Shown: one piece after another, positions 9,801 to 47,614 of the stretch
Position numbering within the stretch: position 1 is the stretch's first letter
How the letters are laid out: each line of letters opens with the position of its first letter
Assembly: GCA_016748015.1 (NCBI GenBank)
Contig: JAAOMT010000226.1
Coordinates: 287,250 to 351,249 of the forward strand
Origin: Geosiphon pyriformis uo1
Taxonomy: Eukaryota; Fungi; Glomeromycota
Length of the DNA stretch: 64,000 bases
Direction: 5' to 3'
The notes under the pieces: model-generated
Seen by the model: only the letters and a program-made list of their open reading frames with translations
What the model was told of the DNA's origin: nothing
The model's database searches: none
Made by a program: the position numbers and the translations under genes

Positions 9801-10732
9801 TATTATTCATAAAAAAAGTACAAAAAAAAAAGTAGAAAAAACAAATAAAAAAATAGTACTTAGTAAGTAAATATAATATTAAAAAATTATAATACATTGC
9901 TTAACAATATGCATATTGTTAGTGAATTATAACACATTACTCAACAATAAGCATATTGTCAGAAAATCATGTCATATTGCTTAGTAATACGCATATTGTT
10001 AAAAAAATAAAACACATTGCTCAAAAAAATATGTAATCTTATATAGCAAGAATTATGTATATATCAAGAATATTAAAAACAGAAAAAACAGAATTAATAC
10101 TAATAATTAGTTAGAACTTATTAATTAACCAATATCTCTTCCTTCAAAAAGTAGTTTTTTACAACTTGAAATAGAATCAAATCATATATTAATAAAATAT
10201 TGATTAATACCTGAATTCATGTTATTATTATTTAATTAAAAAATATTAATTACTTCTATTTTATTAACACTTCATGTTGATAGAATCCAACATTTAATTA
10301 TACTGGACCAATAACTTTTGATTATGGCTATTAACAAAATATTAATTTTTTATTTTCTTTTCTTATTTTCTTTTTATTTTTTTTTATTTTTTTTATTTTT
10401 TTTTATTTTATTTGTTGTTTACTAATTGATTAAAAAGATTAAGCACTAAGTATTTTATATCAAGAATAGTCTAATAAAAAACCCAGAAATAAGAATAGAA
10501 ATTTAAAAATAGCTTATTAGAAAAGCATAACTGCCAAAATAAACTAGCTACTATACTAAAAAAGAAGATTTATAAAAGAAACCATTAATTGAATTTCTGT
10601 TTATTATACAAAAAACTCAACCAAAATTTTCAGATTCTAAAAATCATTAGAAATTACCAATATTATTAACTATTGAGCACCAAGTTACAGATTTGTTATT
10701 TGTTCTAACATTTTAAATAAACATTTATAACA
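9801..10732 (+). repeat. Element A 5' LTR
   Basis: Direct repeat of 49369-50291; ends TATAACA followed by PBS-like TTTAATGTTCTTAGTGAG. Confidence 0.9.
9891..10025 (+). promoter_or_regulatory. U3 array of 40-bp tandem repeats (~3.4 copies) in LTR A
   Basis: Units start at 9891, 9931, 9971 and 10011, each with an ATTGCTnAGCAAT-like palindrome; a TATA-like TATATAT follows near 10058; mirrored at ~49475-49610. Confidence 0.7.
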
Positions 10733-13700: not shown

Positions 13701-16700
13701 AGAGCTTTCTTTTATAAAAGCTTGGATTTTACCAGATAAAAACTACTAGACACATATTTATTACTATTGCAAGCCATATTATAGAGAATACTTTGATTAC
13801 CCTAAATAACAAAAAAGTAAAACAACAAATCATGTCTTGTTTGTAAAAAAATATTACTTAATAAAAAAATGTGGAATAACATTCCTGATTAAAGAAAAAT
13901 ATATAACACATTGTGTTAATACAAAATTGTTATTAGTAACTGAATAAGTCAAGAAACTTTTTTTAATGCCACATAAAACCAAGCATTCTTATGCTTGAAT
14001 AATTATCTATATAACAAAAATGAAATCTGGCAAATAACAAGTACTAAAATTGAAGACACTTCATTCAATAAGATATTCATGATCAAAAATAACCCATCAA
14101 AATTTGTTGAAACCATTCTTATTCCTAATTTAGATATTTTTATTAATATTTTAAGCAACTAAAACAATTTCATAAACATTATTAAAACTTAGCATTCACT
14201 AGAAAAAACAAGAGCAGTGTTTAGAACAATTAAATGCTAAATTCTGTAAATATTGCCTAATTTTTAGTGACTTCAAATATTGTAATAATTGTGATCTTAT
14301 CTATAATCCACTATTATACATGACTTATTTAATCTCCAAAAAAAAGAAACCAATTAGTGAATGTGCATTGAAATTGGAATTAAAATTTAATTACAATTCA
14401 GATTCTAACAATGATAACAATAATAATTCTAACTTTATCTATAATGGCAATAATAACAATAATGATTCAAATTTCAATTACAATCTCAAATAATATATTG
14501 TGCTTTCAGATTTGTCAATAGAGCAGAAACTAAAATGGTTTAGTAATAATAATAAAAGTATTATGTCAGAATGCACATATAATACCAATGCAGAATTTGA
14601 TTTCAGGTATCTAAAAAAAACTGCCATTAGATTGAAACCTTATTTATACACTAGTATAGATCTGAAAATAGCACTGAAAATTTTAACAACAACAATAGTT
14701 CAACTAGTCTCTAGATCTAATTTAGTGAAAAAAAGAATTAATATTAGAGAAAAAATAATTGATACAAGATATATAAAAAATATTATTGCAATGCTATAAA
14801 ACAACTCAAAATAAAATATGTAATTAAACTAAATAAAAAAATACCACAAGCAATATTTTTACCTCTAATTAAAATAGCTTAGTTAATATCAGAAGAAACA
14901 AAAAAAATGTTAAGGATTACAACAAAAAAGATAAAAGAATTCAAATTAATGAATAAAATAGATATATTAGTTAATATAGTAAAAAAAAACAATTAATAAG
15001 AAAAAAATTATTTTTATCTATTAATCAATTTCTATTTTACTATATAATTAGTATATAGTAGTTATAGAAAGGAAGATAAAAAACCAACCCCAAATTTTTG
15101 AAGTTAAAACAAACATTTATAAATTAAAAGAGATTGTTATTACCAATCTTTACATATTAGCCAAAAACCACAAACATATTAAAATTCCAATATACAACAT
15201 AATTAAAGACCTTATAGAAATACTAAATAGAACTACCATTAAATACTTAAACATTGCAGTTGAAAATCACTTACCAATTATTATTTCAGACTTTTTACAA
15301 CTTTGTGAATATGTAAATATCATATTACAAACTATATACAGATAAAAAAAATATTATTTGTTATAATTAGAACAATTAAAGCAAATAAACTTAAGAAATC
15401 TAGATTCACTTTAACAAATACAACTTAAAATGTTACTTAACAGCTTTACTAATATTTTTGTTAGTAAAAATGAATTTGGCAGAACTAATATTATTTAATA
15501 CCAGATCAAAACTGGAAATGTAATGTCAATTAAACAAAAAACATACAGAATACCACTAACCAGCTATAAAATCATCTAACAAAAAATCAACCAAATATTA
15601 AACAATAAATTAATTCAATTATTAATAAGCCCATAGTTATTACCAATAATATTTGTTCATAAGAAGAATAAAAAAATCCACTTTTGTGTAGATTACAGAA
15701 AACTGAACAGTATTATTTATAGAAACAGTTATTTAATTTTATAGATTTAAGAATTATTTAATATTATAGATAAACTAAGTAGGATATGGTGATAATATTT
15801 GGTGCTTAAGATTTGGGTTTTTAGGGAGCTTTTGATAGTTTTTTTTTAATAAACTTGTTTGGTGTATTAATGTTATTAATTTCTAAAAGTCTTCTTAATT
15901 GATATGAATTTACTCATAGAGTTTTTTAGTTATAAGGCACAGAAAGATGTTTTGTAGTGTTGTAACTTCTTGTATGTGAATGTGAGCTATTTTTTCTAAG
16001 CTAATAAGCACAGTTATTAAGGTTTGGCAGTGTTTTTTAACTCTTCTAATAAGCTACCAAAATAATATTAATATTCGAAAAAGCTTCTCTCTTTTACTAG
16101 GCTATTACGAAGTCTATTTCCAAACAGTCAATTTTTCTATGTTGCTGTTCTACTAAAGAGAATAAAAAAAAGAAAAGAAAATAAATAAAAATAAATAAAA
16201 ATAAAAAGAAAATAAGAAATTAATATCTTGTTAATAGCTGTGATCAAAAGCTATTGTTCCAAGGTAGTTAAGTATTAAATTTTATTAACATAAAATGTTA
16301 ATAATAATGACAGTGATTAATATTATTAATTAAGTAATAATAACATGAGTTTGAAGATAATAGATAATTTTATTGATAAGAAAATGATTTCACTTTAAGT
16401 TATAGAAAAATATCTTTTGAAAGAAAAGTATTGTTTTAAATTAATATAAATTCTATTGAATTCTCCAGGAATTTTTTTCTGGCTGTCTTTTTAACTTCTA
16501 CAACTATTTATTTTTATATATTTTTTTTGTTTTACAAAATTGCTTTTTAATTGTTTTATTTTTGCTAGTTATTGTTTTATTATTTTTGTTATTGCTTTAT
16601 TCTTTTATGTTATTACTAGTTATTCTATGTTTTAATTAAATATTTCATGCTATAACATGTTATTAAGTTTTGTATTATGTTATTCTGAGTTATTACACAT

Positions 16701-17810
16701 TATTCTGTGTTTTTTTATATTATCTTGTGTTATTATGTTTTTGATTATGTTTTTTTATAATTTGAATTTGTTTTTTTACTTGGATAACATTGATGTTTTT
16801 AAAAAAAAAAAATGGCTTTTAATATTAAACTTAGATAGTAGTTATTGACAAATAGCCATAAATTTAGCTGACAAAAAAAACAGTATTTACTATTAGAAAA
16901 AGAAACTTTGAATTTGATGTTATGTTATTTAACTTAACCAATATTCCAGCTATCTTCCAATGGCTTATAAAAATCATATATACTGGATTACTATGAAAAT
17001 CAGTAATAGTCTACTTGAACAACACCAATGTGTTCTTCAAAACATTTGATAACCATTTTCATTATTTTTAACAAGTGTTTGAAAAATTAAGAAGAGTTGA
17101 ATTGAAATTAAATGCAACTAAATGCTTTTTTGACAAAACTAAACTTAAGTTTTTGGAATATATTGTAAGCAAAAACAGCATAAAAACAGATTCAGACAAA
17201 ATTGAAATAGTCAAAAACTTTTTGGTACCAACAAATTTTACAGAATTAAGAGTATTCTTGAGATTTGCTGAATATTATTATCATTTTATTCAAAATTTTT
17301 CCAAATTGGCTCAACTATTTCACCAGTTCTAAGCAAAAAATATCAAATATAAATAAACAAAAACTTAACAAGAAGCTTTTGACATCTTAAAAAGAAAGCT
17401 TATTTAAGCACCAGTATTAATCTATTAATATTACAACAAGCCATTTATTATTACTATTAATGCATCTAGTCAAGCATTGAAGACTGTATTGTCACAAAAA
17501 AAAGCAGATAGACGAAAACATCTAGTGTTATATGTTAGCAAAAGTTTAAGTCCAGCCAAAAAGAACTATAAAACCTCAGCATTAAAATACTTAGCTATAT
17601 ATTAGACTGTTATTAAATAGAAAAAATACTTAAGTCAAAAGTTTGATGTTTATACTAATCACAAAAAATTGACATTAATCCAGAAACAAAAATTTGGAGA
17701 TAATTGTCATACAAGATAGAAAATAGAGTTATTACTATTTAATTATACTGTACATTATAAAAAAGAAAAAAAATAGAAATGTCAACAGTTTGTTATAAAT
17801 AAGAAAATTA
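10733..17810 (+). pseudogene. gag-pol: Element A polyprotein relic (N-extension-Gag-PR-Cys-rich-dUTPase-RT-RNase H), split by solo LTR E
   Basis: PR relic LIFDNSLVNS (~13100), dUTPase relic ORF 14500-14799, RT YLNN (from YLDD) ~17012, RT/RH relics 17075-17800; very many stops. Confidence 0.85.
15762..16789 (-). mobile_element. Solo LTR E (A/B-related family) inserted antisense in the RT of element A
   Basis: Minus-strand termini TGTTATCC...TATAATA; flanks TTAA (15758-61) and TTGA (16790-93) fit a mutated 4-bp TSD (probably TCGA); removing it restores E-L-F-D-(A)-F-(G-G)-K-K-W as in B; shares the GGAACAATAGCTTTTGATCACAGCTATT block with A/B LTRs. Confidence 0.85.
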
Positions 17811-19074
17811 AAAAATATTTTAATTCAAAAATATAACAAAAGATAAACACACAAATATTAACAATTCTAACATTATATTAATACTTAACACTTCAAGGAA
17901 AAATTATCTTAAAAGAAATAAAACAACATAAAACAACAAGCAAAATATCTTATTATTTACCAAGATATATTATATTAAAAAAACAAAAAATACTCAGATC
18001 AACTACTCAGAATAATCACAAAACCAAAAAAAAAACAATACTATTCAACATATACTTAAATTTAATAGTAAGACATTTTTATAAAGAAGCAATCATAAAA
18101 AGAATTAGAAAAAAATACTATTGGCTATTCATATATCCAAATATTATCTAATATATTTAAAATTGTGATGTTTGTCAAAAAAAAAAGAAAGAACAAGACC
18201 TAATAAACCACTAAAACTTATCAAAATAAGACAATCATTTAATCAAATTAAAATTGACTTAGTCAAACTATTAACAATAACCAGTAAAAGCAATAGATAT
18301 ATAGTGGTAGTTATGGACTATCTTACAAAATAGCCAGAAGCAAAAGCAATTCAAAAAGCAGATGCAGAATTTATAGCTAAATTTGTATACTAAAATTTGA
18401 TTTATTAACATAGATGTCCAAAAAAATTATTATCAAACCAGAGAACTTACTTTGTGAACAAAACATTAACAGAATTAAGTCAAAAATTTACAATCAAAAG
18501 ATTATTATTATTACTATATTATTTACAAATTAATAACTTAGTTGAAAGATTCAACAGAACATTGTGTAAAGCAATAGCCAAGATCAGCCAAAAAAACCAG
18601 AACAAATAAGATTTGTTTATACTATTAGTATTATTTACTTATCAGACAATGAAGCAAGATAATATATTAACAATACCATTAGAACTTGTTTATAATAAAA
18701 CAACAATATTACCAGTTAAAATAAATATTAATACATATCCAACTAAACCAATAACAGAAGCCAACTTCAAAAAAACATTATTGAAAAAAACATATAACTT
18801 AATAAAAACATTAAAAAACAAAAGGCAAAAAGCAGTTGATAACATATAAAAATTATAAGCAAAACAAAAAAAATGATATTGTAACTAATTATTAGATAAA
18901 CCAATCGAATTCAGAATTGGAAAAAAAGTATTTTTATATTATACCAAAGTAAAAAAACAATAGAATGGAAAATTAAATTCCAAATAGAACAAACTATTTT
19001 ACATTAAAAAAATTCTAGAAAATAGAGCTTATAAATTAAGATGAAACAACAAAATCTTAGTTAAAACAGCATAT

Positions 19075-19972
19075 TGTTACTTATAGAACATAAAAAGTAT
19101 ATTAGCATATAAATTAGCCAATCAGAAGTAGCCATAGTAAAATGTGAAATTCCAGGATTTCTTTCAAAAGAAATTGCAGAATTCCAGGAATTTCAGAATT
19201 CTCGTACAAAAGAATCACAAGATTCTAAAATTTCAGAATTCCACTAAAAAAAAATTGCAGGATTCCAGGAATTCCAAAATTTCTGGTGTGAAAAATTGAG
19301 GAATTGAGGAATCTCAATTATGTATATATAGCAGTAGTGCTAAAAGTAAAAAAGGCAGAATTCTTTAGTTAGAGACCTCTCAGTTTAGATTTGATCTAAG
19401 CAACCTTCCAATATTACAAATATCAATAAATAATTATTTACTATCTCCAATTTCACTCTTCACTATCAACACTTTATGTTGATAACAAGTAATACTTAAC
19501 TACACTAGAACAATAGCTCTTGATCACAGCTATTAATGGGATACTAACTTACAAATTGTCTTGGCTTATTTTCTTTATTTTTTTTTATTTTTTTTATTTT
19601 TTCTATTTCATTTCTGTGATTTTATTGTTGTGTACTAATTGATTGAAAGAGAATAACATGTGGAATACTGATGTCAAAGTGACTGGTAAAAGATCCAAGA
19701 ATAAGGGTAGAACATTCAATTAAGGATAGCTTATCAAGAGGAATACCAATTATCACACTGAAAAAAAAATTGACAAAACTATGGTTTTGGAAAGCTACAG
19801 ATAAACACTATTGAATCTCTGTCCATTATACAAAAAACTCAATTAAAATCTTTAGATAATAATACTTTTAGATACAAACAACCTTTAGATAAAATCATCA
19901 ACCAAAACATCCACCAAACACCAAGTTATGGGTTTGTTATTTCATTTGAGACCCCAAATCACACCTGTAACA
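19075..19972 (+). repeat. Element B 5' LTR
   Basis: Direct repeat of 47615-48505; U3 array of GAATTCCAGGAATTCC-like units ~19145-19315; TATATATA ~19323. Confidence 0.95.
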
Positions 19973-19990
19973 TTTGGTGTTCTCTGTAAG
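19973..19990 (+). promoter_or_regulatory. Primer-binding site of B (TT-TGGTGTTCTCTGTAAG)
   Basis: TGG 2 nt after the LTR end, complementary to a tRNA 3' CCA end; tRNA identity unresolved. Confidence 0.8.
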
Positions 19991-22900
19991 GTATAATTTT
20001 ACAGAGAACCAGCACTAACAACAATCTAAACAGTAGCAGAATCTGAAGAAATAGGAACAAACCATTTGGAATTTGCAAAATTCTTATTCTAACATTATCA
20101 CACTTATTTCGGATTAATAAATAATAGTAGGCTAACAGAATCAGCTTTCAATTGCTATGTCAATGAGAGAATCATATACCATCTAAAAAGCCAAAGAGAT
20201 CCAGAATTCATTTTTAACAACTTCTTCAGTGAATTGTTTCAAAGCACTACTCTTTCACAAAACTACTTATTTGCACTCCTAATTACAGAAATAAACAGAA
20301 AAATTAAAAAATACACCAAACAGAAATTTTTTATCACTTTTGCCAATAAAGAAAAAGAAAGATTACAAACACCAACAGAAACACTAAAGCAAATTCAACT
20401 ACTTACTTGGAAGAAACAAAGATTTGATTCACCTATTAATCCATCATATTACTACACACCTGGAAGCACTATCAATATAATAAGCACAGCTACAACAAGT
20501 GTGACAATGCCACTAAACAGAATTCTATTTCAAAGTAAACAAAAAAAAGCAGAGTTATTAGGAACATATGGCAATTATTTTGAAGAATTTAAATCACAAT
20601 CTTCAATACTATTAGGAATTTAATCACTATCATTACAACCAGATTTTGGAGCCATTAGTTTTTGAGAAATAACCAATTCCGAGGAAGAAGAGAGTAGCAA
20701 TTAGAAAACTAGCAAACAAAATCCAATTCTAAAAAATTCAGAAATTAAAACTCCAGTTAATCAAACTCCAGAAAATCAGAATAATCAAAACCCTAACATA
20801 ATTAATCAACAAAACTTACCTTCAATAATCAAGATCAATTCACCACTCATTCTACCAATCACCAAACAGCAACAACAGCTACAACTGCTATCTCAACAAC
20901 AAATCCAGCAGCAACCACAATAACAACCAATGGCCTACACTCCAATTGCCAAAATAAAAAAATTTACCAGTGAAGAAAACAATGCCCAAGTATGACTTAA
21001 TGATGTGAAAAAAGCCATCACAGCTAATAAATAGAATAATGACAGAGTTTTTCAAGTGATTCTCTATTTTCTACAGGATACCGTCAACTCATAGTATTTG
21101 AGTTTAGCCACTAAACCTCAAATGTTCCAGGAATTTAAAATTGCATTATTGGAATATTTCACTAATAATAACAGTATTAATTGTCTAGTCAACATCTTTA
21201 CTACAATCAAACAGGGAGAAACTGAAGCAGTTACCACTTACTTGGGATGCTTTCACAGAAACTTGCACCAAATTCAAGCAATTCAAGCTGACTATTTTAC
21301 AGCATCACAGATCTTAAACCAGTTTATCTGTGGACTGTGCAGTAGCTTTTTCCAACATGTACACCCAATGCATTCACAAACTCTTCAAGATGCAGTCACC
21401 AATGTGAGAGATTTTGAATTGACAGAACTTAAAGCAAACCATGCCCAAGCTGTTAACCTAGTCATGAATAGATTATCTGACTTAGATTCCAAATTAAAAC
21501 AACTCAGTAATTCAATTAATCATAAATTGGAAGGATACTTAGCTGACAATCACACAATTTATCACCCACCACAATGATGCAATAACTCAAAAAACCCGAA
21601 TTGTTTCCAAAATTAGTCATGTCCATCATCATCATTATCATCAAATCAGCCATGGCAACAAGAGACACATGTCTGCCATAACTGTAGTAAACAAGGCCAC
21701 ATTAGAGCTGACTGCCAATTTTATAATAATAATCTATGATTGGAAAATTAATATCGAAATTCCAATTGCTGGTTTCAACCTAATTTAACACCATATCAAC
21801 CAAATTATTTACCTATAATACAACAGCCAATCTATCAACCACCAATTTATCAGCTCTCTGTACTTGTCATTTATCAACCGCAGTCCCAACCCATTTATCA
21901 GCCACAGCCTTAGGTAATTTATTAATCCCAATAAATTCAAACACCACCACAGAACTTACCTCAAAATGAAACTAAAAGGCCAAGACTGACACAACAAAGC
22001 TAGAGATCATTAATAGTAGTCCATCAACTGATCCCCAGTTTCTTCATGCCACCATCAGAATCTTGACAATAGAATTTGGGCACTAGGTACACCCAAAACC
22101 CGAATTCTCAGAACTATTTAAGTCTTCTGGTTATTCCAGAAAACATCACATTCACTAAACCAGAAACCAACCAAAAGTCACTTACTAGCAATATTTTACC
22201 AGCAACTATCTCCAACAATGGATCCCTAGCAGCTATTTTTTCTTTTAAATTAAAGGAACCAGTTGAAATGCCACTATTCAGTAAAGCCATCCTAGAATCA
22301 AAATCTATTACTGTGATATATACCAATGCTAAAGTTGATGGTTAGTACATTAAACTGATCTTAGACAATGGATTAGCTGGCAGCATTATTACATGACTAT
22401 TCATGAACCAATTAGGTCACCAAGTTGATTGTGCTGCCAATGTGTGCATAATTACTACTGATGGAGTGACCAAAACTCCGATTGGTGAAATAGACAACTT
22501 TCCATTTAAAGTCAACAACATCATAATACCAATTAAGGTATTGGTAATAGAAGCAACTCAATATCAGGCTCTTGTTAAAAATAACTAGCTGTTGAAAGCC
22601 AATGTCATGCTCAACTGAAACACCCAAAAACTGCAACTCAGCCAGAACAGCTACCACACATATGTGTCAGCCATCTGTGGTCATTTTAAGACTACTTTCA
22701 ACAACAAACTACTTATTGAATTAGAAGAAAAAGAAAGAAAACCTACCTGAGAAGTGTATCAAGTTTCCTGGGCCAACACTGAACACAATGAATTATTACC
22801 AGTACTTTCCTAGAACAATAAAAGGAAAGGTAAGAAAGAGAACACAACAGAAGAAAACACAACAACCAAAGAAATAACTAGTGGCTGGAAGAGATCCTAT

Positions 22901-23277
22901 TCACATGAGCCATTAAAACAACTGCTACATATTCCACTCAAATGCCAAGATTGTGGCAAGAAACTTTCTTCCATGGGAGCTTGGATCACACCCAATAAAG
23001 ATTACTAGATGCAAACCCACTATTACTACAAGCCATACTACCGAAAACAATATGGCTACTCAAAATGACAAAACAAGTAGAACAACAAACCATGTCTTGT
23101 TTGTGAGGAACAATTACTCAATAAAGAAATGTGGAACAACATTCCTGGGTGAAGAGGAACATGCGATGCTTCATGCCAATACACGATCCTCATTAATAAC
23201 TGGGTAAGTTGTGGAATGCCTATTACTGCCACCTAATACCAAATGATTTCTTGTTTGGATAATTACCTACACAACAA

Positions 23278-24248
23278 TGTTACCAGTAGAATTTTAGCTA
23301 GTAATTAGCATAAAATTATCCTTATAATCCCTATAATTAATTAGTATATTAATATTATTTCAAATTATCATTTATTATTTAATCAATTATTACATATTAT
23401 GATTTAATTAAAATAATCTAATTAGTATAACAAAAAGTAGAATGATCAAATTACACAATACTCTGAACTTTGTAACATTCTAAAATTCATCGAAATTTAC
23501 AAAAATTCGCCGAAATTTATAAGAAATTTGCCGAAATTATGAATAGTTCACTCAAATTAATCAATAGTTCAGCGAAATAACTTGTAGTTCATCAAAATTT
23601 GAGCAAAAAGAAAAAGTGCAAGTTTATAGACTAGTATTACAACAAGTTGTATAAAAAAAGAGCTTTTTTCTTCAAGAAAATGTATCTTACTTTAGATTTA
23701 TTACTTAGAACCATTCCTACATACACAAAGAGAAATAAATATCAAATAATTTGAAAAACCAAATTTTTTAATTATTGCACTTGGAAAATCCCCAAAACCC
23801 AATTAACATTTTGAAATTGATTAGCTACCAATTTCAGTAAACTGTTAGTGACTCCAGACCTGGATAGAAAACGTTTCTCTTGATAAAATCCTATTTCTTT
23901 TACCTTTCTTTTATTTTTCTTTTCTTTTCTTATTACAATCATTAGAGTAGCCTACAGACAAGATTCCTGTAGAAGAGTTGACTTTCACAGCAAAATAACT
24001 ACACATTTTTAGTGAGCTTTCAGATGAGCAATTCTTGGAAAAGAGTTGACATTTACTACAATGTAACTACATAAAATAACTGGCAAGAAATTGGCCATTT
24101 CATTTATAAGCCCAGCAGTTTAAATTATAAGAGATAATTTGAAGATAAATTCAGTTATTGGAGGTTCAACTACTTCTAAAAAACGTGAATTTACAACCAA
24201 CAGATAGTTACAACATTCAAGAAAAGAGACCAAAAACCTCCAGTAATA
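23278..24248 (+). repeat. Element C 5' LTR
   Basis: Direct repeat of 32189-33157; ~20-bp TTCGCCGAA-type repeats ~23480-23600; TATAAAA ~23650. Confidence 0.95.
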
Positions 24249-27200
24249 TTTGGTGCTCTCTCACAAAAATAACACAGCAACAACAAATTCAAAGTGGTAA
24301 CCACACCAGACACAACAACTTTAGAGTATCATCAGTTAATTTACACTCACTGCAAGCAAAGATTCAACATCCCAGACGGAATTGAAGTTGTCAAGAAATC
24401 AGTATACCAATATATTGAAAATTACATCAATAATTATCTTTTTAGAAATTACAACATTTCAGAAGTTAGAAGCAACCTCTACAATAATCTAGTGCACTAT
24501 TCACGATTGGAAACTAAAGACCTTAACAGTAAAACACTTGCCATCTACTTTCAAGAACTCAATTACAACATTATCAAATATTGTGAAGAAAAATACCCAG
24601 TACAGTCTAAATATTCTCTTAACTTTGAATCAAAAACAGAAACAAGCAACAAAGGCAAACAAAAAGTAAAACAATACTCAAGAACCACTCCAAACACTCC
24701 AATATTACCAAAGACAACTGCCAAACACTTGCAAACACCTGAACAAAGAATCAGTGTCAAATTACCACTTTCTATTACATCATTTCCAATTTCATTTGTT
24801 CAATCACAAACACCAAGTTCACCATTTAACTGTTTCTCTAAACCAGAAAATTTTCAGTCACCTAGAAATCTTACTCAACAACAGGAACCAATATCAACAA
24901 ATGCCAATATTATTGATTACTTACAGGAAAACGAAAGTAATCATTCAGAAAGCTTGGAAAGTGAAAAAACTGAACCAGAACCAGAAGAAGCCCCAAAAAA
25001 TGAAGAAGAAATGACAACTGCTTATATTGCAAAGATTCCAGAATTCACTGGTGAAGATAATGATACCAGTCCTCAAGAATGGCTTGACAAAATTTAAAAA
25101 ACAGGAGATACAAATAGTTGGAATGCAGCAAGAATGCTCAAAGCAATTCCATACTTTCTCCAAAACACTGCAGGAAAATGATTTGAAAACTTAGAAGAAC
25201 CATTTGAAAACTGGCAAGCATTCAAAGATGTTTTCCTATAACAATTTACTGACAACAACACTTCTATCACTCTCAGGAACCACTTTTGCAATATCAAATA
25301 AGAAACATCTGAAACTGTTATGACCTATCTTGGAAGATTCAACAAACTTCTCAGATGAATCTGACAATTGGAAACCAATAACTACTATTCTGATGCTTAA
25401 ATTCTGGATCAATTTATAGCAGAGTTAAAAGACAAACTGATTAAAAAAGTCCATCCACATGCTCCAGCAGACTTAGCAACTGCTATTAGACATGCAAAAA
25501 GTTATGAAATGGCAATGAAAAAAGCAAATCACACCAAGCTTGTAAACCTTGCAATTGGAGAAACCAGCTCAGTAGCTGAAAAGAAAATAGACCAATTTAC
25601 AAAAAAGGTTGAAAGCTACTTTACAAACCAACAACAATAGCAACAACAACTACAAAGATATCAATCTCTACAACAATGCAACCAAAACAACTTTGGATCA
25701 CCATCTAATAACCAACTTCAAAATTGTCACTATTGTGGAATTCCAAAATACTGGAAACGAGATTGCAGAAAACTACAAAGAGACCAACAAAACAGGAGTA
25801 ATCAATGTTATTCTTTATCACAACAATCTTATTACCAACCTCCACCACCAACCTATTATTTATCAAGACCACAAAATTAAAACAGTTACTATCCACCAGC
25901 TCCACAACCAATGCAGCAACAATATCAGCAATCTTTACCAATTTAGCCATATCAGACACCACTCACTTAACAATATCAAGTACCAGCAAGAAAATTGGTT
26001 CAACATAACCAATTCACATCCCAAAATCAATTGCAGAGTAACAACAACAGAATCAATCTAAATAACCAATTGGTTCCCCAAAATTCTGGTCAGCAAAGAC
26101 CTAATCACTATCACACTCAACCCAGTTATCTTATAATACCAGAAGAATCGGATTTTCAACAAACTGCACTTTCTGAAGATGAAGTTGTAGTACCAAGATC
26201 AAACCCTTCCAACCACACCATTTCACCAGCTCAAATTGCCCAAAATACCAATCTGTCAGATATATTTCCATTTGAATTTGAAGCAAATGAATCACCATTT
26301 CTGCTTAGTAATGCAGCAGTCAATGAACAGAAAGCAATTACTACTATGTACACAGAAGCTACAGTAAAAGGAAAACCCATTCGCTTAATCTTAGATAATA
26401 GATTGGCTGGAAGTATCATCACTTACCAGCTGATGCAACAACTCAAACAAAATGTAGACAAACCAGCTCAAACAGTTATTGTCATAGCTAATAGTATGAA
26501 AAAAACTCCAGTAGAAGAAATTGATGATTTTCCTTTTACAATTAATGGAATCACCATTCTAATTAAAGTTTTTGTTATAAATGTACCCCAATACTAAGCT
26601 TTAGTTGGAAATGATTGGCTTCTCAAGGCTAATGCAAATCTGAACTGGGAAACTCAAGAACTTAAAATCTCATACCAAGGACAATATACCATAGTACCTG
26701 CAACCTGTTGTACTTTTAACAAATAATCAGAAAAAGCTCCAGTATTTGAATTTGAAGAAGAAAAGGAAATGCCACTTACTGAAACTTACATGGCTCTTGA
26801 ATCACCATCTAATTGGGCTGAGAAAACAGAACAAGAGATTTTTAAAAAATTAAGAGAATAGAAGAAAATTAAATATTTCACACCAGAACCACGAAAAAAA
26901 CCACTATACATTCCATTAAAATGCAAAGATTGCAAAAAGAAGCTTTTATCTATGGAAGCCTGTATTTCCCCAGAAGAAAAATACAAAACTCGCACTTGTT
27001 ACTTCTGCAAGGCATGCCATAAAGGATGATTTGGATCCCCAAAGAGAAGTGGAAAATAAGACAAAACTTCTTGCCTTACTTGTGAAGAAATGCTACCAGA
27101 AGAATGCAATTGGATTGATGTAGCAATGAGAAGAGGAATATGTGATCAGATCTGTCAATATGCTCTATCAATTTCGGAAAAAGTCAGAAGAGGAACACCA

Positions 27201-29915
27201 TTTGATGCAGCATACAACAGTGCTCTCAATAAACTTTACCACTATCCTCATGAGGCTGAAATGATTTTTGACTTAGCAATAACATTGATCAATAGAGCCA
27301 CCCAAAAAGATGTCCACCAAATGAAAGAAGCTAAATACATTGAGTATACCATAGAATTAGCTGAATTTGATTATGAAGATGAAGTAGAAACCTACCACCA
27401 AATTGCAAGCCACATATATCCGACCAAAGAAGCTCAAATTCAATGATTAGAGCAAATGAACATTCAATTGTGTGAAGTATGTGTTATGCCTTGTGATAAC
27501 CAATAGTGTTTAAAATATTATGCTCTTAGCATTTCTCTGCCAGATGAGAATAATGAAAATAAAATCGAATTTGGAGTATTTGAATTAGTAAAAAACTATT
27601 AACCACTCCCATCTATCTTCTTGAAAAGCAACTATCTCTACAACTTAAATATTTTGACAACCATGGCCAAGGAATCAAACCAGAAAAAGCACACGAAATT
27701 GATGCTGGATATGACTTAAGATATCCAGGAAAAAATACTTTGGTTCTCCAATCAAAGTCCTTGACAAAAATCAATCTCAAAATTGCTCTTGAAATTTCAC
27801 CAGAAGCAATGGTTCAAATTGCCTCCAGATCATCATTGGCAAGCAATGGAATCAATATTAAAGGAGGAGTTATAGATGCAGAATACACTGGAGATATTAC
27901 CATCATGTTACAGAATGAAACAGACAAACCATTTAAAATTGAACATGCTGAAAAAATTGCTCAAGCAATTTACTTACCCTTAATCAAAATTTCGGGTTTA
28001 CAATCAGTAAACAACAAAGAACAATTGGGAAAAAGTGAAAGAGGAACTCAAGGTTTTGGTTCAACTGGACGATTTACAGTTTCAGTAAACATAGCTCTTA
28101 ATACACAAAATAAATCTCACCAGATTCTTCAACTTCCCCAGCCAATTACCATTTCATCTTTTGAAGAACATCACAAAATTTACACTTGCTCAAAACCCAT
28201 CACTACACAACAAATCTTTGAATTCAATGAACAAATCTGTTTGAAGCATGAAATCTCAATTCCAAACGTTTATATTCCCAAAGAAATGAAAAAATTTTGA
28301 GTTATATTCTACAACCCCAATAATTACCCTATTGTCTTATTAAACAAACTAGAGATTGGAATCATACACAGCAATATTTTTCAAGATGAAAACCCTCAAA
28401 TTGTCTCTAATTTCATCGAAATTGTAAGGTATACTCTACTCCCAAATCCAAATATCATTCTCACTACTGAAAACTACCATTTTTTGGAAAAAAAACTCTC
28501 TCAAATCAACATGAGTCCTTTAGAACTTCAACAACAAAGACAATTGAAACAATTGATAGCTGAATTTGCAGATATATTTGCAAAGACAACAATGACCTGG
28601 AAAAAACGGATATGGTTCAACATCAGATCCATATAAGAGATACTCCACCAAAACATTAGCAAGCTTACAGAGTGCCATCTGCCAGCCACCAATTCATCAG
28701 AGAAGAAGTCCAGAGAATGCTCAATAACGGATTGATTCAACCATCAAGAAGTCCTTGGGCCTCACCAGTAGTCTTTGTCAAAAAGAAAAATGGAAAAATC
28801 AGATTTTGTGTTGACTATCACCAATTGAACAATATGACAATTGAAGATGCCTATCCTCTTTCAAGAATTGATGACATGCTAGATGCTCTAGGAAAAGCCA
28901 AGTCTTCTCAACTTTAGACTTAGAAAGTGGATACTGGCAAGTTGAAATGAATCCAAAAGACCGACCCAAAACAGCATTCACTACCCAAGAAGGAAACTAT
29001 GAGTTCAATGTTATGTCTTTTGGACTCTGCAATACACCAGCAACATTCCAACGACTTATGGATGTTGTATATGAAGAACTCTTATGGCAATTAGTAGTTG
29101 TTTACCTTGATGATACTGATGTGTATTCACCAAGCTTTGAAGCCCATCTTATTCACCTATGAGAAATTTTTCAATGATTACAGAAAACAGGATTAAAATT
29201 AAACATTGAGAAATGTCACTTTGGAAAAACAAGCTTAATCTTTCTTGAATACATTGTAAGCAAAGATGAAGTCAAACCAAACCCTGGAACAATCAGTGCT
29301 GTCAAAAACTTCTAAACTCCCAAAAATACTACAGAGCTACGAAGATTTGTAGGATTAGCCTCTTACTATTGGAAATTCATCAAAGAATTCTCAAAAATTG
29401 CCAAACCACTCAATTATCTTACCAACAAAAATGTACCATACAAATAGACAGAAGAACAACAGAAAGCTTTTAAAACTCTCAAAACAAGATTGAAAACAGC
29501 CCCAGTTCTTGCATACCCAAACTTCAACAAACAATTTCAACTAGCCACTGATGCTTTACACATAGCATTCAGTGCCATCTTATCACAATTAGATGAAAAT
29601 GGGCAAGAACAAGTCATCGTCTATGCTAGTAGAACACTCAAACCAACAAAACTAAAATACGGCTCAACTAAATTAGAAGCTGCTGCAGTTATTTGAGCTC
29701 TTAAACATTTTTAACAATATCTGAAGAATGGAAAAGAATTTGACATAATAACGGACAACATTGGCCTTAAATGGCTCAATAAAAAGAAAACTGAACAAAG
29801 TGCCAAACAGTCTTGATAGAATGACTTCTTAGCAGATTACAGATATATTGTACACCACAAACCAGGAAAACTACATACCAATGTTGATAGCCTCTCAAGA
29901 ATGAGACAAGATTAA
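24189..29915 (+). pseudogene. gag-pol: Element C polyprotein: N-extension-Gag-PR-Cys-rich-dUTPase-RT-RNase H
   Basis: One frame from the LTR through 27446 (ORFs 24294, 25995 and 27090 share a frame); Zn knuckle CHYCGIPKYWKRDC at 25725; PR ILDNRLAGS; dUTPase; RT YLDD 29103-29114; ends NVDSLSRMRQD* (TAA 29913-15). Confidence 0.93.
27665..28072 (+). other. dut: Trimeric dUTPase domain within Pol of C (also D ~40550-40951, B ~33690-34095, A ~14535-14960)
   Basis: All five motifs present: DAGYDL, ASRSSLA, GGVIDAEYTGDI, EKIAQ, RGTQGFGSTG. Confidence 0.93.
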
Positions 29916-31500: not shown

Positions 31501-32208
31501 ATGATTATTTCCCGAAATATTCAACAAATATCCCAAAAGTTAATGTTAGCCTTGAAAACATTTCCAAACTTATCCATAACGATTAATAGAAGTTAAATTA
31601 ATTACATTCAGAAAGAAACCACAGCCCCAGTAGCAAATCATTTACAGAACTATCACCACTATGGAAAAAAAACAAGAAGTCACTCTGAAAATAGGTTACC
31701 AAAACTTTTGAAGCAAGCATTGAAAGAAAATTTTTTAATTGCCCCTATTGACATTTTACCAAATACTACAATGTAACAAAAACTTTTACTACTTCTCAAT
31801 GAACAGAACAATGGACACACCCTTATCTATAAATACTTTCACATTGGAAAGACACTTTATGAACGAAAACTGGAACTTGAAGCAACAAATCTCACTCCTA
31901 AAGCTATACAAAAACAAATTCACAATGAATTCAAAACAGCAGCTAGACTAACAAACACTTGCTACAAATTTAGAACAGCTTTTAGACTCTATAATTTGTT
32001 TAATACTTGTGAAAATGTTCTACAAAATTCAATACTACAACCAATAAAAGTCCAATACATTGGCAAACTCACAGAACTGAAATTTCAACAATTTTCAGAC
32101 TAGATTACTTCAATTATTTTGGATCACTATCTCAATATTACAGATAGTACTTGGACTTTGATAGAGCTCAGTCTTGAGGAGAAGATTATATTACCAGTAG
32201 AATTTTAG
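31501..32208 (+). pseudogene. Element C ORF3 (~235 aa, unknown function) running through the PPT into the 3' LTR
   Basis: MIISRNIQQISQKLMLALK...YFHIGKTLYERK...RLYNLF...IGKLTELKFQQF...LEEKIILPVEF* in one frame with three TAA/TAG stops at Gln-like positions; homologous in D, B and A. Confidence 0.85.
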
Positions 32209-33157
32209 CTAGTAATTAGCATAAAATTACCCTTATAATCCCTATAATTAATTAGTATATTAATATTATTTCAAATTATCATTTATTATTTAATCAATTA
32301 TAACATATTACGATTCAATTAAAATAATCTAATTAGTATAACAAAAAATAGGGTGATCAAATTACACAATACTCTGAACTTTGTAACATTCTAAAATTCA
32401 CCGAAATTTACAAAAATTCGCCGAAATTATGAATAGTTCATCCAAATTAATCAATAGTTCAGCAAAATAATTTGTAGTTCATTAAAATGTATCTTTAGTT
32501 TGCCAAAATTTGAGCAAAAAAAAAAAGTGCAAGTTCATAGACTAGTACTACAACAAGTTGTATAAAAAAAGAGCTTTTTTCTTCAAGAAAATTTATTTTA
32601 CTTTAGATTTATCATTTAGAACCATTCCTACACACACAAAAGAAATAAATATCAAATAATTTAAAAAACCAAATTTTTTAATTATTGCATTTAGAAAATC
32701 CCCAAAACCCAATTAACATTTTGAAATTGATTAGCTACCAATTTCAGTAAACTGTTAATAACTCCAGGCCTGGATAGAAAACGTTTCCCTTGATAAAATC
32801 CTATTTCTTTTACATTTCTTTTATTTTTTTTTATTTTTTTATTACAATCATTAGAGTAGCCTACAGACGAAATTCCTGTAGAAGAGTTGATTTTCACAGC
32901 AAAGTAACTACACATTTTTAGTGAGCTTCCAGATGAGCAATTTCTGAGAAAGAGTTGACATTTATTACAATGTAACTACATAAAGTAACTGGCAAAAAAT
33001 TGGCTATTCTACTTATAAGCCCAGCAGTTCAAATTATAGGAGATAATTTGAAGATAAATTCAGTTATTGGAGGTTCAACTACTTCTAAAAAACGTGAATT
33101 TGCAACCAACAGGCAGTTACAACATTCAAGAAAAGAGACCGAAAACCTCCAGTAACA
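32189..33157 (+). repeat. Element C 3' LTR
   Basis: Follows the PPT; ends AGTAACA followed by TSD ACAA. Confidence 0.95.
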
Positions 33158-36100
33158 ACAAAGACAAGATCTAGCAGATGGCAAATGCCAAAGTAGAAGA
33201 TGCTATGCCCAGTGAAATATTAGACATCAAGAACCAGTTAACATTGTTCTGATTTCCAATCCAGATGTTTTTCTGGATCTGGAAACTGGCCCAGAAGAAT
33301 TTTATGAACACTATCAAAATTTGACACCAACTAAAGAAAAACAGGAACAGCATGTGGAAAAAATAAACACCCAATTATGTGACCACTGTTTAATCCCATG
33401 TGACTTCCAGTATTGTAATGAGTGTGACTTCATCTACAATCCATGACCATGTATAATTTACACAAATCCAGAGGAAAACAAGCCAATTAACAACTGTGTA
33501 TTAGAATCAGAATCAATTTTCAATCCCAATTCAAACTTTGACAATGATAATAACAAAAACAATAGTTTCAGCTCTGCTCAAAATGACAATGGAGATAACA
33601 ACAATTTAAACTCTAATTCAAATTCTGAAACATTTATCGCACTTTTTAATCTCACCAAGGAACAAGAACTTAAATGGTTTAGTAATAATAACAAAGATAT
33701 TATGCCAGAATGGGTGCATAATACCAATGCAGAGTTTGATTTGAGATATTCAGAGAAGGATGCCATCAAATTGGAACCATATTTGCACACATGCATTGAT
33801 CTCAAAGTAGCATTAGAAATCCCAGCAACAACAATAATTCAATTAGTATTTAAGAGTAGTTTAGGGAAAAAAGAAATTAACATTAAAGAAAGAATAATTG
33901 ATGCAAGATATGTAGAAAATATTATTGCAATGCTACAAAATGATTTAGAAAAGACTATGTCATAGAGCCAAATGAAAAGATAGCACAGGCAATATTCCTG
34001 CCTCTGGTTAAAATAGCTCAATTAGTATCAGTAGAAAACAGAAAAGAATTAGGGATTACAGCTAAAGAAATACAGAGATTCAGATTCACAGATAGAATAG
34101 ATATACCAGTCAATATGACAGAGAAAGAGGCTATTGACAAAGAAGAAATTATCTTCACCCATCAACCAATTTCCATTTCATCATATGACTAGTATATGAT
34201 AACTATAGAGAAAAAAGTGAAGGATCAAGTTCAAATATTTGAGGCAGAAGCACAACTTTGTAAATTAGGAGAGATTGGATTAATTAATCTACACATACCA
34301 GCCAAGAATCATAGTCACATTAAAATTTTTATTTACAACAACACGGAAAACATCATGGAGATATCAGAAGAAACTACCATTGGATACTTAACCATTGAAA
34401 TTAAAGAACAACAACCAAATCTTATTCCAAACTTTTCACAATTGTGTAGATATGTGGATATTACATCACAAACAATATATGGACAAGAAAAATATTATCT
34501 GCTCCAATCAGAACAATTAGAACAAATAAACTTGGGAAACTTAGACCCACTACAACATATTCAACTTAAAATGCTACTCAACAATTTCAATAATATCTTT
34601 ACCAGTAAAAACAAATTTGTTAGAATTGACATCATCCAATATCAAATTAAGCCTGGAGATGCAATGCCAATTAAACAGTAAGCATACAGAGTACTACCAG
34701 TTAGCCATAAAATCATTCGTCAAAAAATCAATCAAATGCTTGACAATGGGCTAATTCAGCCATTAATGAGCCCATGGTCATCACCAGTGATACTAGTCCA
34801 TAAGAAAATTGGGAAAATTTGCTTTTGTGTAGATTACTGGAAACTGAATGGAGTGACCAAAGGAGATAGCTATCCAACTCCAAAGATCCAAGAATTGTTC
34901 AATGCTTTTGGAGGAAAGAAATGATTTTTGACACTAAATTTAGACAGCAGTTATTGGCAAGTAGCCATAAAACCAGAAGACAAAGAGAAAACAGCTTTTA
35001 CAACTTGGGAAAGAAACTTTGAATTTGAAGTAATACCATTTGGCTTAACGAATACTTCAGCCACTTTTTAGTGACTTATAGAAATTGTTTATACTGGGTT
35101 ACTATGAAAATCAGTAGTCATATACTTGAATAACACCAATGTGTTCTCAAAAACATTTAATAATCATCTGTATTATCTTCAACAAGTGTTTGAAAGACTA
35201 AAAAGAGCCAAATTAAAGCTAAATGCAATTAAATATTTCTTTGAAAAGACTAAACTCAAGTTTTTGGGACATGTAATGAGCAAAAATGGAATCAAAACAG
35301 ATCCAGACAAGATTGAGATTGTTAAAAACTTTCTAATACCAAATAATCTCACAGAACTAAGAACATTCTTGGGATTTGCTAGATACTACTGCCACTTTAT
35401 CAAGAATTTTTCTAAAATAGCTCAACCACTACACCAACTCCAAACAAAAAACACCAAATATGAATGGACATAAATTCAGCAAGAAGCTTTTGATACATTA
35501 AGAAGAAAGCTTATTTAAGCTTCAGTACTAATTTATTCAGATCATAGCAAGCCATTCATAATCATAACTGATACATCTGGCCAAGCATTGGGAGCAGTAT
35601 TATCTCAGAAATGACCAGACAGACAAGAACATCCAGTAACATATGCCAGTAGAAGCTTAAGTCCAACTGAAAAAAACTATGAAACTCCAGCACTGAAACA
35701 CTTAGCTATCTATTGGGCTGTCACCAAATAGAAAAAATACTTGAGTCAAAAGTTTGATGTATACACCAATCACAAAGAATTGACTTCAATCCAGAAACAA
35801 GAGTTTGCAGATGATTGCCATGCCAAATAGAAAATAGAACTTTCATTATTTAATTATATAGTACATTATAAAAAGGGAAAAGAAAACAGAAATGCTGACA
35901 GATTGTCACGAATGAGACAAATCTAAAAACATTTCAACCCAAAAATATAACAAAAGATGAATATACAAAAATACCAACAACTTCAACATTATATAAATAT
36001 TCAATTGTTTAAAGAGAAATTATCTCAAAAGGAACAATACAACATAAAACAACAATCAAAATATTTTATCAACCACCAAAATATACTTTACCAAAAAAAT

Positions 36101-36452
36101 AGAAAGAATTCAGATCAACCAATTAGAGTAATCACAAAACTAGAGAAAAAAACAATATTATTCAACATGCACTCAGATTCAACAACAAGACATTTTCATA
36201 AAAAAGTAATCATAGAAAGAACTAGGAAAAGATACTATTGGCCATCAATATATCCAGACATCATCCAATATGTGCAAAATTGTGATGCTTGTCAGAGAAA
36301 AGAAGGAACAAGATCCAATGAACTATTAAGACCAATTAAAGTGGAATAACCATTTAATCATATTGGAATTGACTTAGTTGGACCATTATCAATTACCAGT
36401 AGAGGCAACAGATATATTGCAGTAGCCATAGACTATTTCACTAAATGGCCAG

Positions 36453-37164
36453 TGTTACCAGATAAAATTAGAGATATTATTTAGCATAAAATTATCTTTA
36501 TAATCTCTATTATTAATTAGCATATATTATTATTTCAAATTATCACTTATTACATTAGCAAAATGTCCAAAATTATCATTTAATTAATAATTCAATTTGC
36601 ACATAACATAAATGTAACCTAATTGTAATGATCAATCATGCAATACCCCGAACTATATAACATTCAAAAAACCAAATTCTTTAAATTATTGCACTTAGAA
36701 AATTTTCAAAACTCAACTAATGTTTTGAAATTAATTAGCTACCAATTTCAATAAACTGTTAGTGACTCCAGACCTGGATCAAAAACAATTTCCTTGACAG
36801 AATTCAATTTTTTTTTACATTTCTTTTATTTTTCTTTTATTTTCTTATCATAATTATTAAAGTAACCTACAGACAAGATTCCTGTAAAAGAGTTGACTTT
36901 CACAGCAAAGTAACTATATATTTTTAGTGAGCTTCCAGACAAGCAATTCCTGAGAAAGAGTTAACATTTACTACAATGTAACTACACAAAACAACTGGCA
37001 TGGAAATGGCCATTCCACTTATAAGCCCAGCAGTTCAAATTATAGAAGATAATTTGAAGATAAAATTCAGTTATCGGAGGTTCAAACACTTCCCATAATC
37101 ATGAATTAACAGCATTACAACAAACATACAAGAGCTAAGAAGAGACCAAAAACCTCTGGTAACA
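36453..37164 (+). repeat. Element D 5' LTR (712 bp; ~270-bp internal deletion)
   Basis: Matches 45038-46019 except for the segment between two ATTCAAAAA copies (45247 and 45518). Confidence 0.93.
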
Positions 37165-45069: not shown

Positions 45070-46019
45070 CATGAAATTATCTTTATAATCTCTATCATTA
45101 ATTAGCATATATTATCGTTTTAAATTATTACTTATTACATTAGCAAAATGTCCAAAATTATTATTTAATTAATAACCCAATTTGCACATAACATAAATGT
45201 AACCTAATTGTGATGATCAATCATGCAATACCCTGAACTATGTAACATTCAAAAAGTTTGCCAAAATTTGTAAAAATTTGCCGAAATAATTGATAGTTCA
45301 CTGAAATATCTAATAGTTCGCAGAAATAACTTGTAATTCACTGAAATGTATCTTTAGTTTAGCAAAATTGTAGAAAATAGCAAAGTTCAAGTTCATAGAA
45401 TAGTGTTACAACAAGTTGTATAAAAGTAGAGCTTTTTTCTTCGAAAAAATGTATCTTACTTCAGATTTAACAATTAGAATCATTTTTTATACACAAAAAC
45501 AAAATAGATATCAAATAATTCAAAAACCAAATTTTTTAAATTATTGCACTTAAAAAATTTTCAAAACCCAACTAACATTTTGAAATTGATTAGCTACCAA
45601 TTTCAATAAACTGTTAGTGACTCCAGACCTGGATTGAAAACAATTTCTTTGACAGAATTCAATTTTCTTTTACATTTCTTTTATTTTTCTTTTATTTTTT
45701 TATCATAATCATTAGGGTAACCTACAGACAAAATTTCTGTAGAAGAGTTGACTTTCACAGCAAAGTAATTAAATATTTTTAGTGAGCTTTCAAACGAGCA
45801 ATTCTTGGGAAAGAGTTGACATTTACTACAATGTAACTACACAAAGCAACTGGCATGGAATTGGCCATTCCACTTATAAGCCCAGCAGTTCAAATTATAG
45901 GAGATAATTTGAAGATAAAATTCAGTTATTGAAGATTCAAACACTTTCCATAGTCGTGAATTAACAGCATTACAACAAACATACAAGAGCTAAAAAGAGA
46001 CCAAAAACTTTTGGTAACA
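45038..46019 (+). repeat. Element D 3' LTR (982 bp, complete)
   Basis: TGTTACC...GGTAACA; TATAAAA ~45419. Confidence 0.95.
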
Positions 46020-47601: not shown

Positions 47602-47614
47602 AAGGAGGGAATAA

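Follow-up and report, generated by a model that had tools for sequence, protein, structure and literature searches.

What does a duplicated module of inverted repeats do in the long terminal repeats (LTRs) of a retrotransposon family, and does it act as RNA or as DNA? The initial annotation of the window (the whole stretch of 64 kb of DNA that was analysed) described a tandem two-hairpin module with compensatory changes at 23947..24070, and took it for a conserved structured RNA such as an IRES, a packaging signal, a nuclease-resistant element or a ribozyme. The analysis reported here finds a duplication whose units carry homologous inverted repeats, whose stems have diverged in a pair-preserving way, which belongs to a block under purifying selection, and which is followed by a helix and a primer-binding site (PBS). 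A role at the DNA level, as promoter or enhancer, appears more likely than a role in RNA.

The elements and their setting

The window is strongly A+T-rich (10–34% G+C per 2-kb window). Comparing it with itself revealed two LTR elements, C and D, of ~9.6–9.9 kb each, with the following landmarks.

23278..24248, + strand: 5′ LTR of element C (LTR1, or L1), 971 bp, termini TGTTAC...GTAA(C/T)A
32189-33157: 3′ LTR of element C (LTR2, or L2), the partner of LTR1, 92% identity
~36450-37164 and 45037-46010: LTRs of element D (LTR3, or L3, with an internal deletion, and LTR4, or L4)
24251..24264, + strand: PBS-like TGGTGCTCTCTCAC, 2 nt past the end of LTR1, found only after both 5′ LTRs

The C/D LTRs start with TGTTAC and finish with GTAACA, that is, with inverted TG...CA termini. 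As in an LTR retrotransposon, ACAA is present at both flanks of element C as a target-site duplication. A polypurine tract, GAGGAGAAGA, precedes LTR2, and TGGTGCTCTC, in the place of a PBS, lies two bases downstream of both 5′ LTRs. No tRNA gene was detected by a tRNA search of the 64-kb window. Both elements sit inside an older element from another family, pieces of which occupy 19464-23277, 33295-36452 and 46020-48505, with a further matching copy at 10262-19972.

The pol domains in the interiors follow the order protease, dUTPase, RT-RNase H and integrase (zinc finger, core), with E-values of 0.0035 for Asp_protease_2 (a weak match), 2.9e-25 for dUTPase, 1.2e-32 for RT_RNaseH_2, 6.3e-17 for Integrase_H2C2 and 1.7e-8 for rve; no RT palm domain scored in the ORFs scanned. 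The coding frames are interrupted by many stops, and an ATG is missing from the gag frame of both copies. Judged from their sequence, C and D are dead Ty3/gypsy elements (Metaviridae) with a dUTPase between protease and RT, an arrangement described for fungal Gypsy elements (PMC2864245). Of the named protein relatives, the best belong to Rhizophagus irregularis, at 50% identity, and to Geosiphon pyriformis, at 71% across 24% of the query, the rest being mostly metagenomic. Such relatives make a glomeromycotan fungus the probable host. The family is hugely abundant: 14,254 contig pieces of DNA run X1 fell on a 1,124-nt stretch of it (likeness of at least 80%), and 3,564 on the 161-nt stretch of the module.

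Anatomy of the module

All four C/D LTRs contain two tandem units of ~68 nt that are 68–75% alike. In each unit a 6-bp inverted repeat, whose loop is of 9 or 11 nt, is followed by an AAG linker and by a second inverted repeat of 9 bp that has a bulged G and a loop of 6 nt; both inverted repeats stand at homologous positions in unit 1 and unit 2. The parts in LTR1, and the three other copies, are as follows.

23945..24012, + strand: unit 1 of LTR1
23952-23972, + strand: unit 1 hairpin 1, CTACAG/CTGTAG
23973-23975, + strand: unit 1 AAG linker
23976-24000, + strand: unit 1 hairpin 2, AGTTgACTTT/AAAaTAACT
24005..24017, + strand: 13-nt spacer ATTTTTAGTGAGC, same letters in 4 of 4 LTRs
24013..24080, + strand: unit 2 of LTR1
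24018-24040, + strand: unit 2 hairpin 1, TTTCAG/TTGGAA in the LTR1 copy
24041-24043, + strand: unit 2 AAG linker
24044-24068, + strand: unit 2 hairpin 2, AGTTgACATT/AATGTAACT
32854..32981, + strand: module copy of LTR2
36860..36987, + strand: module copy of LTR3
45715..45842, + strand: module copy of LTR4

The coordinates and the two-unit, two-hairpin plan first proposed for the module were thus confirmed on the LTR1 sequence and on an alignment of the eight units, as was its presence in all four C/D LTRs. Of the features said to be kept between units, the AAG linker is present in every one of the 8 units and the bulged G in 7 of them. When unit 1 is set against unit 2, the four window copies show 14–18 differences per 56 ungapped columns, at a 68-nt period, and Tandem Repeats Finder, at its thresholds, did not report the duplication. 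The longest blocks identical from unit to unit are AAGAGTTGAC and GTAACTACA(C)A, and (A/T)GTAACTACA closes each unit. The two-unit state is apparently fixed in the family: run X1 gave no common copy-number variants, with a joint in single contigs only. No module homologous to it is present in A/B, the second LTR family of the window.

Pairing and covariation between the units

The two helices proposed initially comprise 15 pairs. In the eight-unit alignment, 96.7% of their 120 cells were paired, against 32.5–48.3% when the partners were slid by 1–3 columns, and four pairs had changed on both sides. Neither the observed paired share nor the covariation score was reached by any of 500 shuffles. 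The claim that the stems covary between units therefore stands. In the family-majority state, all 7 of the 7 stem differences between units preserve pairing, and the other differences are in loops. From unit 1 to unit 2, the pairs changed from C-G to T-A, T-A to T-G and A-T to C-G in hairpin 1, and from T-A to A-T in hairpin 2; the T-G pair of unit 2 is compatible with the + strand only. Double changes of the transversion type were found at pairs 10-28 and 41-52, which are T-A in unit 1 and G-C or A-T in unit 2.

How often chance yields such a pattern was simulated by mutating unit 1 with random substitutions and accepting any conserved stack of at least 5 bp; the simulation was run on the window copies L1–L4. 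The observed double changes were matched in 0–2 of 5000 runs for L4 and 38–47 of 5000 for L1, and in 424 and 862 of 5000 for L3 and L2 respectively. On these sequences we regard the covariation signal as real, albeit modest and drawn from one comparison, that of unit 1 with unit 2. Between the C and D element lineages, the number of stem changes is zero.

These results bear first on the possibility that the two-hairpin units are an RNA element of the full-length transcript, situated in the 3′ UTR (or, with a start upstream of them, in the leader), where they would bind Gag or host proteins for export, stability, packaging or 5′–3′ bridging. We consider this possible, with clearly less than an even chance. 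Both hairpins have diverged in a pair-preserving way since the duplication, by changes that include the two transversion pairs and the strand-specific T-G, and a gag frame devoid of ATG also speaks for it; on the other side are the dependence on a single comparison of units and the lack of stem covariation between the C and D lineages.

The module was also sought outside the family, and no relative in the collections covered carried it. Exact-pattern scans with the hairpin-2 motif gave no matches in viral, metagenome and genome contigs, and no relatives of the RNase H ORF were found in viral contigs. From 569 metagenome relatives, 80 loci were kept and used for module searches. A covariance model of the unit found nothing significant in these 80 loci (best E-value 0.18, within a coding region), and in the window only the four unit-2 copies were listed. 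A blastn search of the same loci with LTR2 and LTR4 returned T-rich low-complexity matches only.

Mutation bias and family variants

Variable places in the contigs of run X1 are almost purely transitions (LTR, 115 of 129; module, 22 of 22). Because variation is mostly of this kind, a double change from G-C to A-T arises by the two commonest mutations. Such transition decay would account for pair 13-25 in L4 and for pair 24051/24062, and possibly for the change at pair 8-30; going by the sequences, it leaves the changes at pairs 10-28 and 41-52 unaccounted for. The family-majority letters of run X1, given as shares of depth, are C at 24020 (83%), C at 24035 (91%), G at 24039 (82%) and G at 23995 (87%). 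This bears on the unit 2 consensus TTCCAG/CTGGGA of the initial annotation, which occurs in 0 of the 4 window copies but equals the family-majority letters. At 24025, a quarter of the family has C instead of T. The same run also has minority letters, read as per-site shares without linkage: at 24050 T (13%), at 24051 G (19%), at 24062 C (16%) and at 24063 A (15%). These point to an older ACGTT/AACGT form, in which two CpGs paired mutually. The "compensated" pair 24051/24062 sits on these two CpGs and is reachable by the commonest mutations, which weakens the case for RNA.

If mutation can mimic compensation at some pairs, the hairpin symmetry as a whole might be a mutational by-product of template switching from arm to arm, in replication or in reverse transcription, the block being conserved for another reason. 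Reverse transcriptases often switch templates, and the G-C to A-T double decay is what the observed transition bias predicts. Template switching has been reported to create and maintain hairpins (PMC8794818). However, if one arm had been copied from its partner, the bulged G and the T-G pair should have been lost, yet both persist in the family majority; in addition, two of the double changes are transversions, at separate helices. We find this origin unlikely, and its neutral-duplication form is contradicted by the deficit of lineage-fixed differences reported below.

RNA folding

Folding was compared with dinucleotide shuffles for the 136-nt module of the four copies. On the + strand, z ranged from −0.42 to −1.66, and 17–63 of 200 shuffles folded equally well or better; on the − strand, z ranged from +0.10 to −1.01. 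The predicted fold is no more stable than that of shuffled sequence on either strand, which counts against an RNA element. Single hairpins reached −1.8 to −6.7 kcal/mol, with competing helices. In a 399-nt context, pair probabilities were 0.06–0.95 for unit 1 hairpin 1 and 0.39–0.85 for unit 2 hairpin 2, but 0.00–0.31 for unit 1 hairpin 2 and unit 2 hairpin 1. RNAalifold, applied to the four LTRs, recovered 3 of the 4 hairpins and replaced unit 2 hairpin 1. The low probabilities of these two hairpins, and the loss of one of them in the alignment fold, are further arguments against an RNA element.

RNA–RNA complementarity between the module and the leader did not exceed that of shuffles, of which 9 of 60 and 3 of 60 did as well, another point against an RNA element. 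The 3′ half of the LTR is rich in long inverted repeats, L4 having 8 stems of at least 8 bp versus 0.82 in shuffles (0 of 200 reached this number), an excess that favours the RNA element.

A three-way junction closed by the flanks had also been suggested. The closure is weak: a 4-bp GUAG/CUAC helix exists in L1 and L2 only, where it overlaps hairpin 2, and RNAalifold closes unit 1 alone, by a G-U-rich 9-bp helix without covariation.

Going by composition, the hairpins should be equally weak in DNA and in RNA. This also tells against the idea that they act in single-stranded DNA during reverse transcription, by pausing or strand transfer, or as sites related to integrase. U3 is single-stranded in strong-stop intermediates, and there is a likeness between the hairpin 2 arms (AGTTGAC...GTAACT) and the termini of the LTR (TGTTAC...GTAACA); the resemblance is of 5 nt, however, possibly by chance, and no known precedent was found in the literature consulted. 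Such a role seems very improbable.

The search of Rfam with Infernal that had been advised for the module was run on three LTR copies (LTR1, LTR2 and LTR4) and returned nothing on it at E-values up to 10, a negative result that counts against an RNA element and against the named classes. A hammerhead ribozyme has a CUGAUGA core, stem II, GAAA and three helices around the cleavage site. Unit 2 reads CAGAUGAG without stem II, and the hammerhead was rejected. More broadly, a specialised RNA, whether ribozyme, IRES or exonuclease-resistant RNA, is hardly credible: CAGATGAG...GAAAG in unit 2 is superficially like a hammerhead core and the gag frame is ATG-less, but no stem is possible between CAGATGA and GAAA, the C that replaces T at 24025 in a quarter of the family falls inside the hammerhead-like motif, there is no pseudoknot and no stable junction, and the module sits upstream of the TATA box.

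Position in the LTR

The module spans positions ~668–795 of the 971-bp LTR, its last base being 24072. The features around it in LTR1 are as follows.

23885..23936, + strand: T/C-rich tract, directly upstream of the module
24090..24094, + strand: ATTGG, predicted CCAAT box on the other strand, in 3 of 4 LTRs (AATGG in LTR3)
24105..24110, + strand: TATAAG, predicted TATA box, identical in 4 of 4 LTRs and in the family loose-end consensus
24119..24143, + strand: 10-bp palindrome TT(C/T)AAATTAT-5 nt-ATAATTTGAA, over the predicted start site
24154..24247, + strand: 13-bp helix GTTATTGGAGGTT / AACCTCCAGTAA(C/T), 24154-24166 with 24235-24247, 68-nt loop, predicted U5 stem

From the end of the module to TATAAG there are 33 nt, with ATTGG in between. 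More hairpins had been described downstream of the module, and the palindrome at 24119-24143 agrees with this in part: it has 10 bp in L2 and L4, and L3 has the same letters, but just 7 bp pair in L1. The 13-bp helix, in which GTTATTGGAGGTT pairs with AACCTCCAGTAAC, encloses the final 94 nt of the LTR and stops 3 bases before the PBS. Two of its 13 pairs have changed on both sides with pairing kept (T-A to C-G, and G-C to A-T), and the 68 nt inside it are the most divergent part of the LTR, with 0.29 fixed differences per column. A covarying helix beside the PBS has the look of a leader stem, which would put the 5′ leader on the downstream side of the TATA box.

With this arrangement, the module would lie in the predicted U3, a placement that we believe has about two chances in three of being right. 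If so, RNA would contain it only close to the 3′ end, within the 3′ UTR, a location that speaks against an IRES or a 5′ packaging role. The module could instead lie in R, because TATA-like strings are common in such A+T-rich DNA. The named RNA classes lose ground on two counts, having no match in Rfam and concerning a module that, upstream of TATAAG, is probably outside the 5′ leader.

The A/B LTR family of the window has the same order, a T-rich tract followed ~160 bp later by TATAAAAG. This order gives weak support to the U3 placement.

Selection on the block

Since both LTRs of an element are identical at insertion, differences within one element's LTR pair were scored as post-insertion decay. 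Differences between the C pair and the D pair were scored as fixed; they therefore arose while the lineage was active. The counts were as follows.

Module: 128 columns, 4 fixed differences, 19 post-insertion differences
ATTGG/TATAAG/palindrome stretch: 78 columns, 3 fixed, 10 post-insertion
Rest of the LTR: 481 columns, 79 fixed, 54 post-insertion

Lineage-fixed differences are five-fold rarer in the module than in the LTR remainder (Fisher test: odds ratio 0.14 and p=2e-4 for the module versus the rest, p=2e-5 for the module taken together with the promoter stretch versus the rest), whereas post-insertion decay per column is uniform (p=0.28). A deficit of fixed differences together with uniform decay means that a block of ~205 bp, made of the module and the core-promoter-like stretch, was under purifying selection. 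Neutral duplication is ruled out by this deficit.

Purifying selection on the block is compatible with an RNA element, and so is the location of the four fixed differences of the module (23950, 24004, 24025 and 24072), all of which are outside the stems. The chance that 4 of 4 fixed differences fall outside stems is, however, (68/128)^4, or ~0.08, which is not significant, and the observation fits DNA and RNA readings alike.

Discussion

The reading that we favour, at about an even chance, has the module acting as DNA, in the manner of an upstream promoter/enhancer block present twice in the predicted U3. TATAAG would then be a working TATA box, with transcription starting at ~24131–24153, and the block, as U3, would be found in RNA only near the 3′ end. 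Host factors would probably bind at its short palindromes and at AAGAGTTGAC and GTAACTACA, the blocks that are invariant. Tandem repeats are often found in U3 and can regulate transcription, and TGTAAC(C)A motifs occur upstream of the TATA box in some LTR clades, twice in Retrofit, according to PMC3601003; the same source states that the U3/R/U5 borders cannot be set without RNA data.

Binding of host factors to a duplicated promoter/enhancer block does not predict the pair-preserving differences in the stems. The T-G pair and the conserved bulged G are, moreover, less readily expected of a symmetric protein site than of a + strand that is single-stranded. The conserved structured RNA of the initial annotation is upheld as regards selection on the block and pair-preserving changes, but not as regards structure, the fold being at shuffle level and two hairpins at pair probabilities of 0.00–0.31. 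A more specific version, in which the module is a protein-binding RNA platform presented twice in the 3′ UTR (or the leader), kept by compensatory evolution, serves the genomic RNA in export, packaging or 5′–3′ bridging, and represents a new class of cis-acting RNA without Rfam counterpart, strikes us as rather doubtful.

If the module is a promoter/enhancer duplication, it is an ordinary LTR feature, of use for marking out the promoter in a retrotransposon family that is very abundant in an A+T-rich, probably glomeromycotan, fungus. Were the RNA role true, it would be among the few known cis-acting RNA elements in fungal Ty3/gypsy outside yeast Ty3. Contrasting lineage-fixed with post-insertion differences is, in addition, a simple way to locate the selected parts of dead LTRs.

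Some known systems resemble parts of this LTR. In retroviral leaders, U5 stems flank the primer-binding site. The 13-bp C/D helix is similar in that it adjoins the PBS, at 3 nt, and covaries, but this likeness concerns the helix neighbouring the module and not the module itself.

Cis-acting RNA elements in the 3′ UTRs of Ty3 and of simple retroviruses (PMC11381356, PMC3856414) lend plausibility to an RNA element in the module. The 3′ half of the bipartite PBS of Ty3 and other cis elements of its 3′ UTR also belong to a Ty3/gypsy element and are functional RNA in the 3′ UTR/U3, and a minimal Ty3 requires part of the 3′ UTR; in contrast to the C/D module, PMC11381356 does not present the Ty3 segment as duplicated hairpins. 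The DR of Rous sarcoma virus and the constitutive transport element of Mason-Pfizer monkey virus are repeated or symmetric structured RNAs near the 3′ end, with roles in export, stability or packaging. As described in PMC3856414, they lie upstream of the 3′ LTR, measure ~115–165 nt and are stably folded. The C/D module differs from them in being inside the LTR, in having stems of 6–9 A-U-rich pairs, and in showing neither sequence nor Rfam similarity to them.

The 72/75-bp repeats of murine leukaemia virus and the boxes of tobacco Tnt1 are tandem repeat enhancer/promoter modules of U3. The Tnt1 repeats are mentioned in PMC3601003, whose paired TGTAAC(C)A of the plant Retrofit LTRs, upstream of TATA, is another case. 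Like these modules, the C/D module is a direct repeat of tens of bp within 160 bp upstream of the TATA box, is conserved in its family, and has a GTAAC-containing motif that closes each unit; what sets it apart from them is the presence of two inverted repeats per unit, with arms that have diverged while preserving their pairs.

Structure at the LTR's 3′ end

The LTRs of elements C and D, two degenerate Ty3/gypsy retrotransposons of the window, carry inverted and tandem repeats besides the two-unit hairpin module (coordinates within the window).

Helix and repeats of the C/D LTRs
24154-24166 with 24235-24247: 13-bp helix, enclosing the final 94 nt of the LTR and stopping 3 nt short of the primer-binding-site-like sequence (PBS)
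23812-23836, 24119-24143 and 45529-45560: long inverted repeats of the LTR 3′ half
23482-23578: further repeats in tandem within the LTR's upstream part, with AAAATTCGCCGAAATTTACA and CCGAAATTATCAATAGTTCA as their units, a period of 20-21 nt and 2.3-2.8 copies

Pairing in the 13-bp helix is preserved between the C and D lineages across a T-A to C-G and a G-C to A-T change, whereas its 68-nt loop has diverged strongly between them. A U5 leader stem is the probable identity of this helix. Perfect inverted repeats 8-11 bp long are over-represented in the 3′ half of the LTR, and in LTR4, the second LTR of D, 8 stems of at least 8 bp were observed versus 0.82 in shuffles. The 10-bp inverted repeat among them and the predicted start site overlap.

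The arms of hairpin 2 of the module, AGTTGAC...GTAACT (23976-24000 and 24044-24068), are similar to the terminal inverted repeat of the LTR, TGTTAC...GTAACA (23278-23283 and 24243-24248), a likeness that may be due to chance.

Variation within the family

The family is extremely abundant: among contigs of the DNA run X1, compared with the LTR stretch at a likeness of at least 80%, 14,254 contig pieces matched 23277-24400. Transitions made up 89% of the variation over this stretch, and the CpG sites at 24025/26, 24050/51 and 24062/63 were mostly decayed; the two together resemble the signature of cytosine methylation. No common copy-number variant of the module was seen among the run X1 contigs. 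In a single contig, 24023 runs back into 23968 after 11 intervening letters of different sequence, the pattern expected if a copy carried a third insert resembling a unit, and other single contigs lacked 94-126 nt around the module.

Organization of the elements

Both elements are nested (19464-48505) in an older element of another family, pieces of which pick up again at 33295 and 46020. This host element and the older family's copy at 10262-19972 appear to have one LTR in common, forming a tandem LTR-internal-LTR-internal-LTR array.

Coding regions of C and D
24273-25097 (C) and 37105-38010 (D): gag-like frame
27584-28300 (Pfam E 2.9e-25) and 40031-40954 (Pfam E 1.6e-18): dUTPase domain

The gag-like frame contains no methionine codon across 274 (C) and 301 (D) codons, and in D it is open upstream, across the PBS and as far as the LTR. 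The start of gag could be explained by an ATG that has decayed, by initiation at a non-AUG codon or by an exon further upstream. In both elements, the dUTPase domain is located between protease and RT, a placement described for some fungal Gypsy families (PMC2864245).
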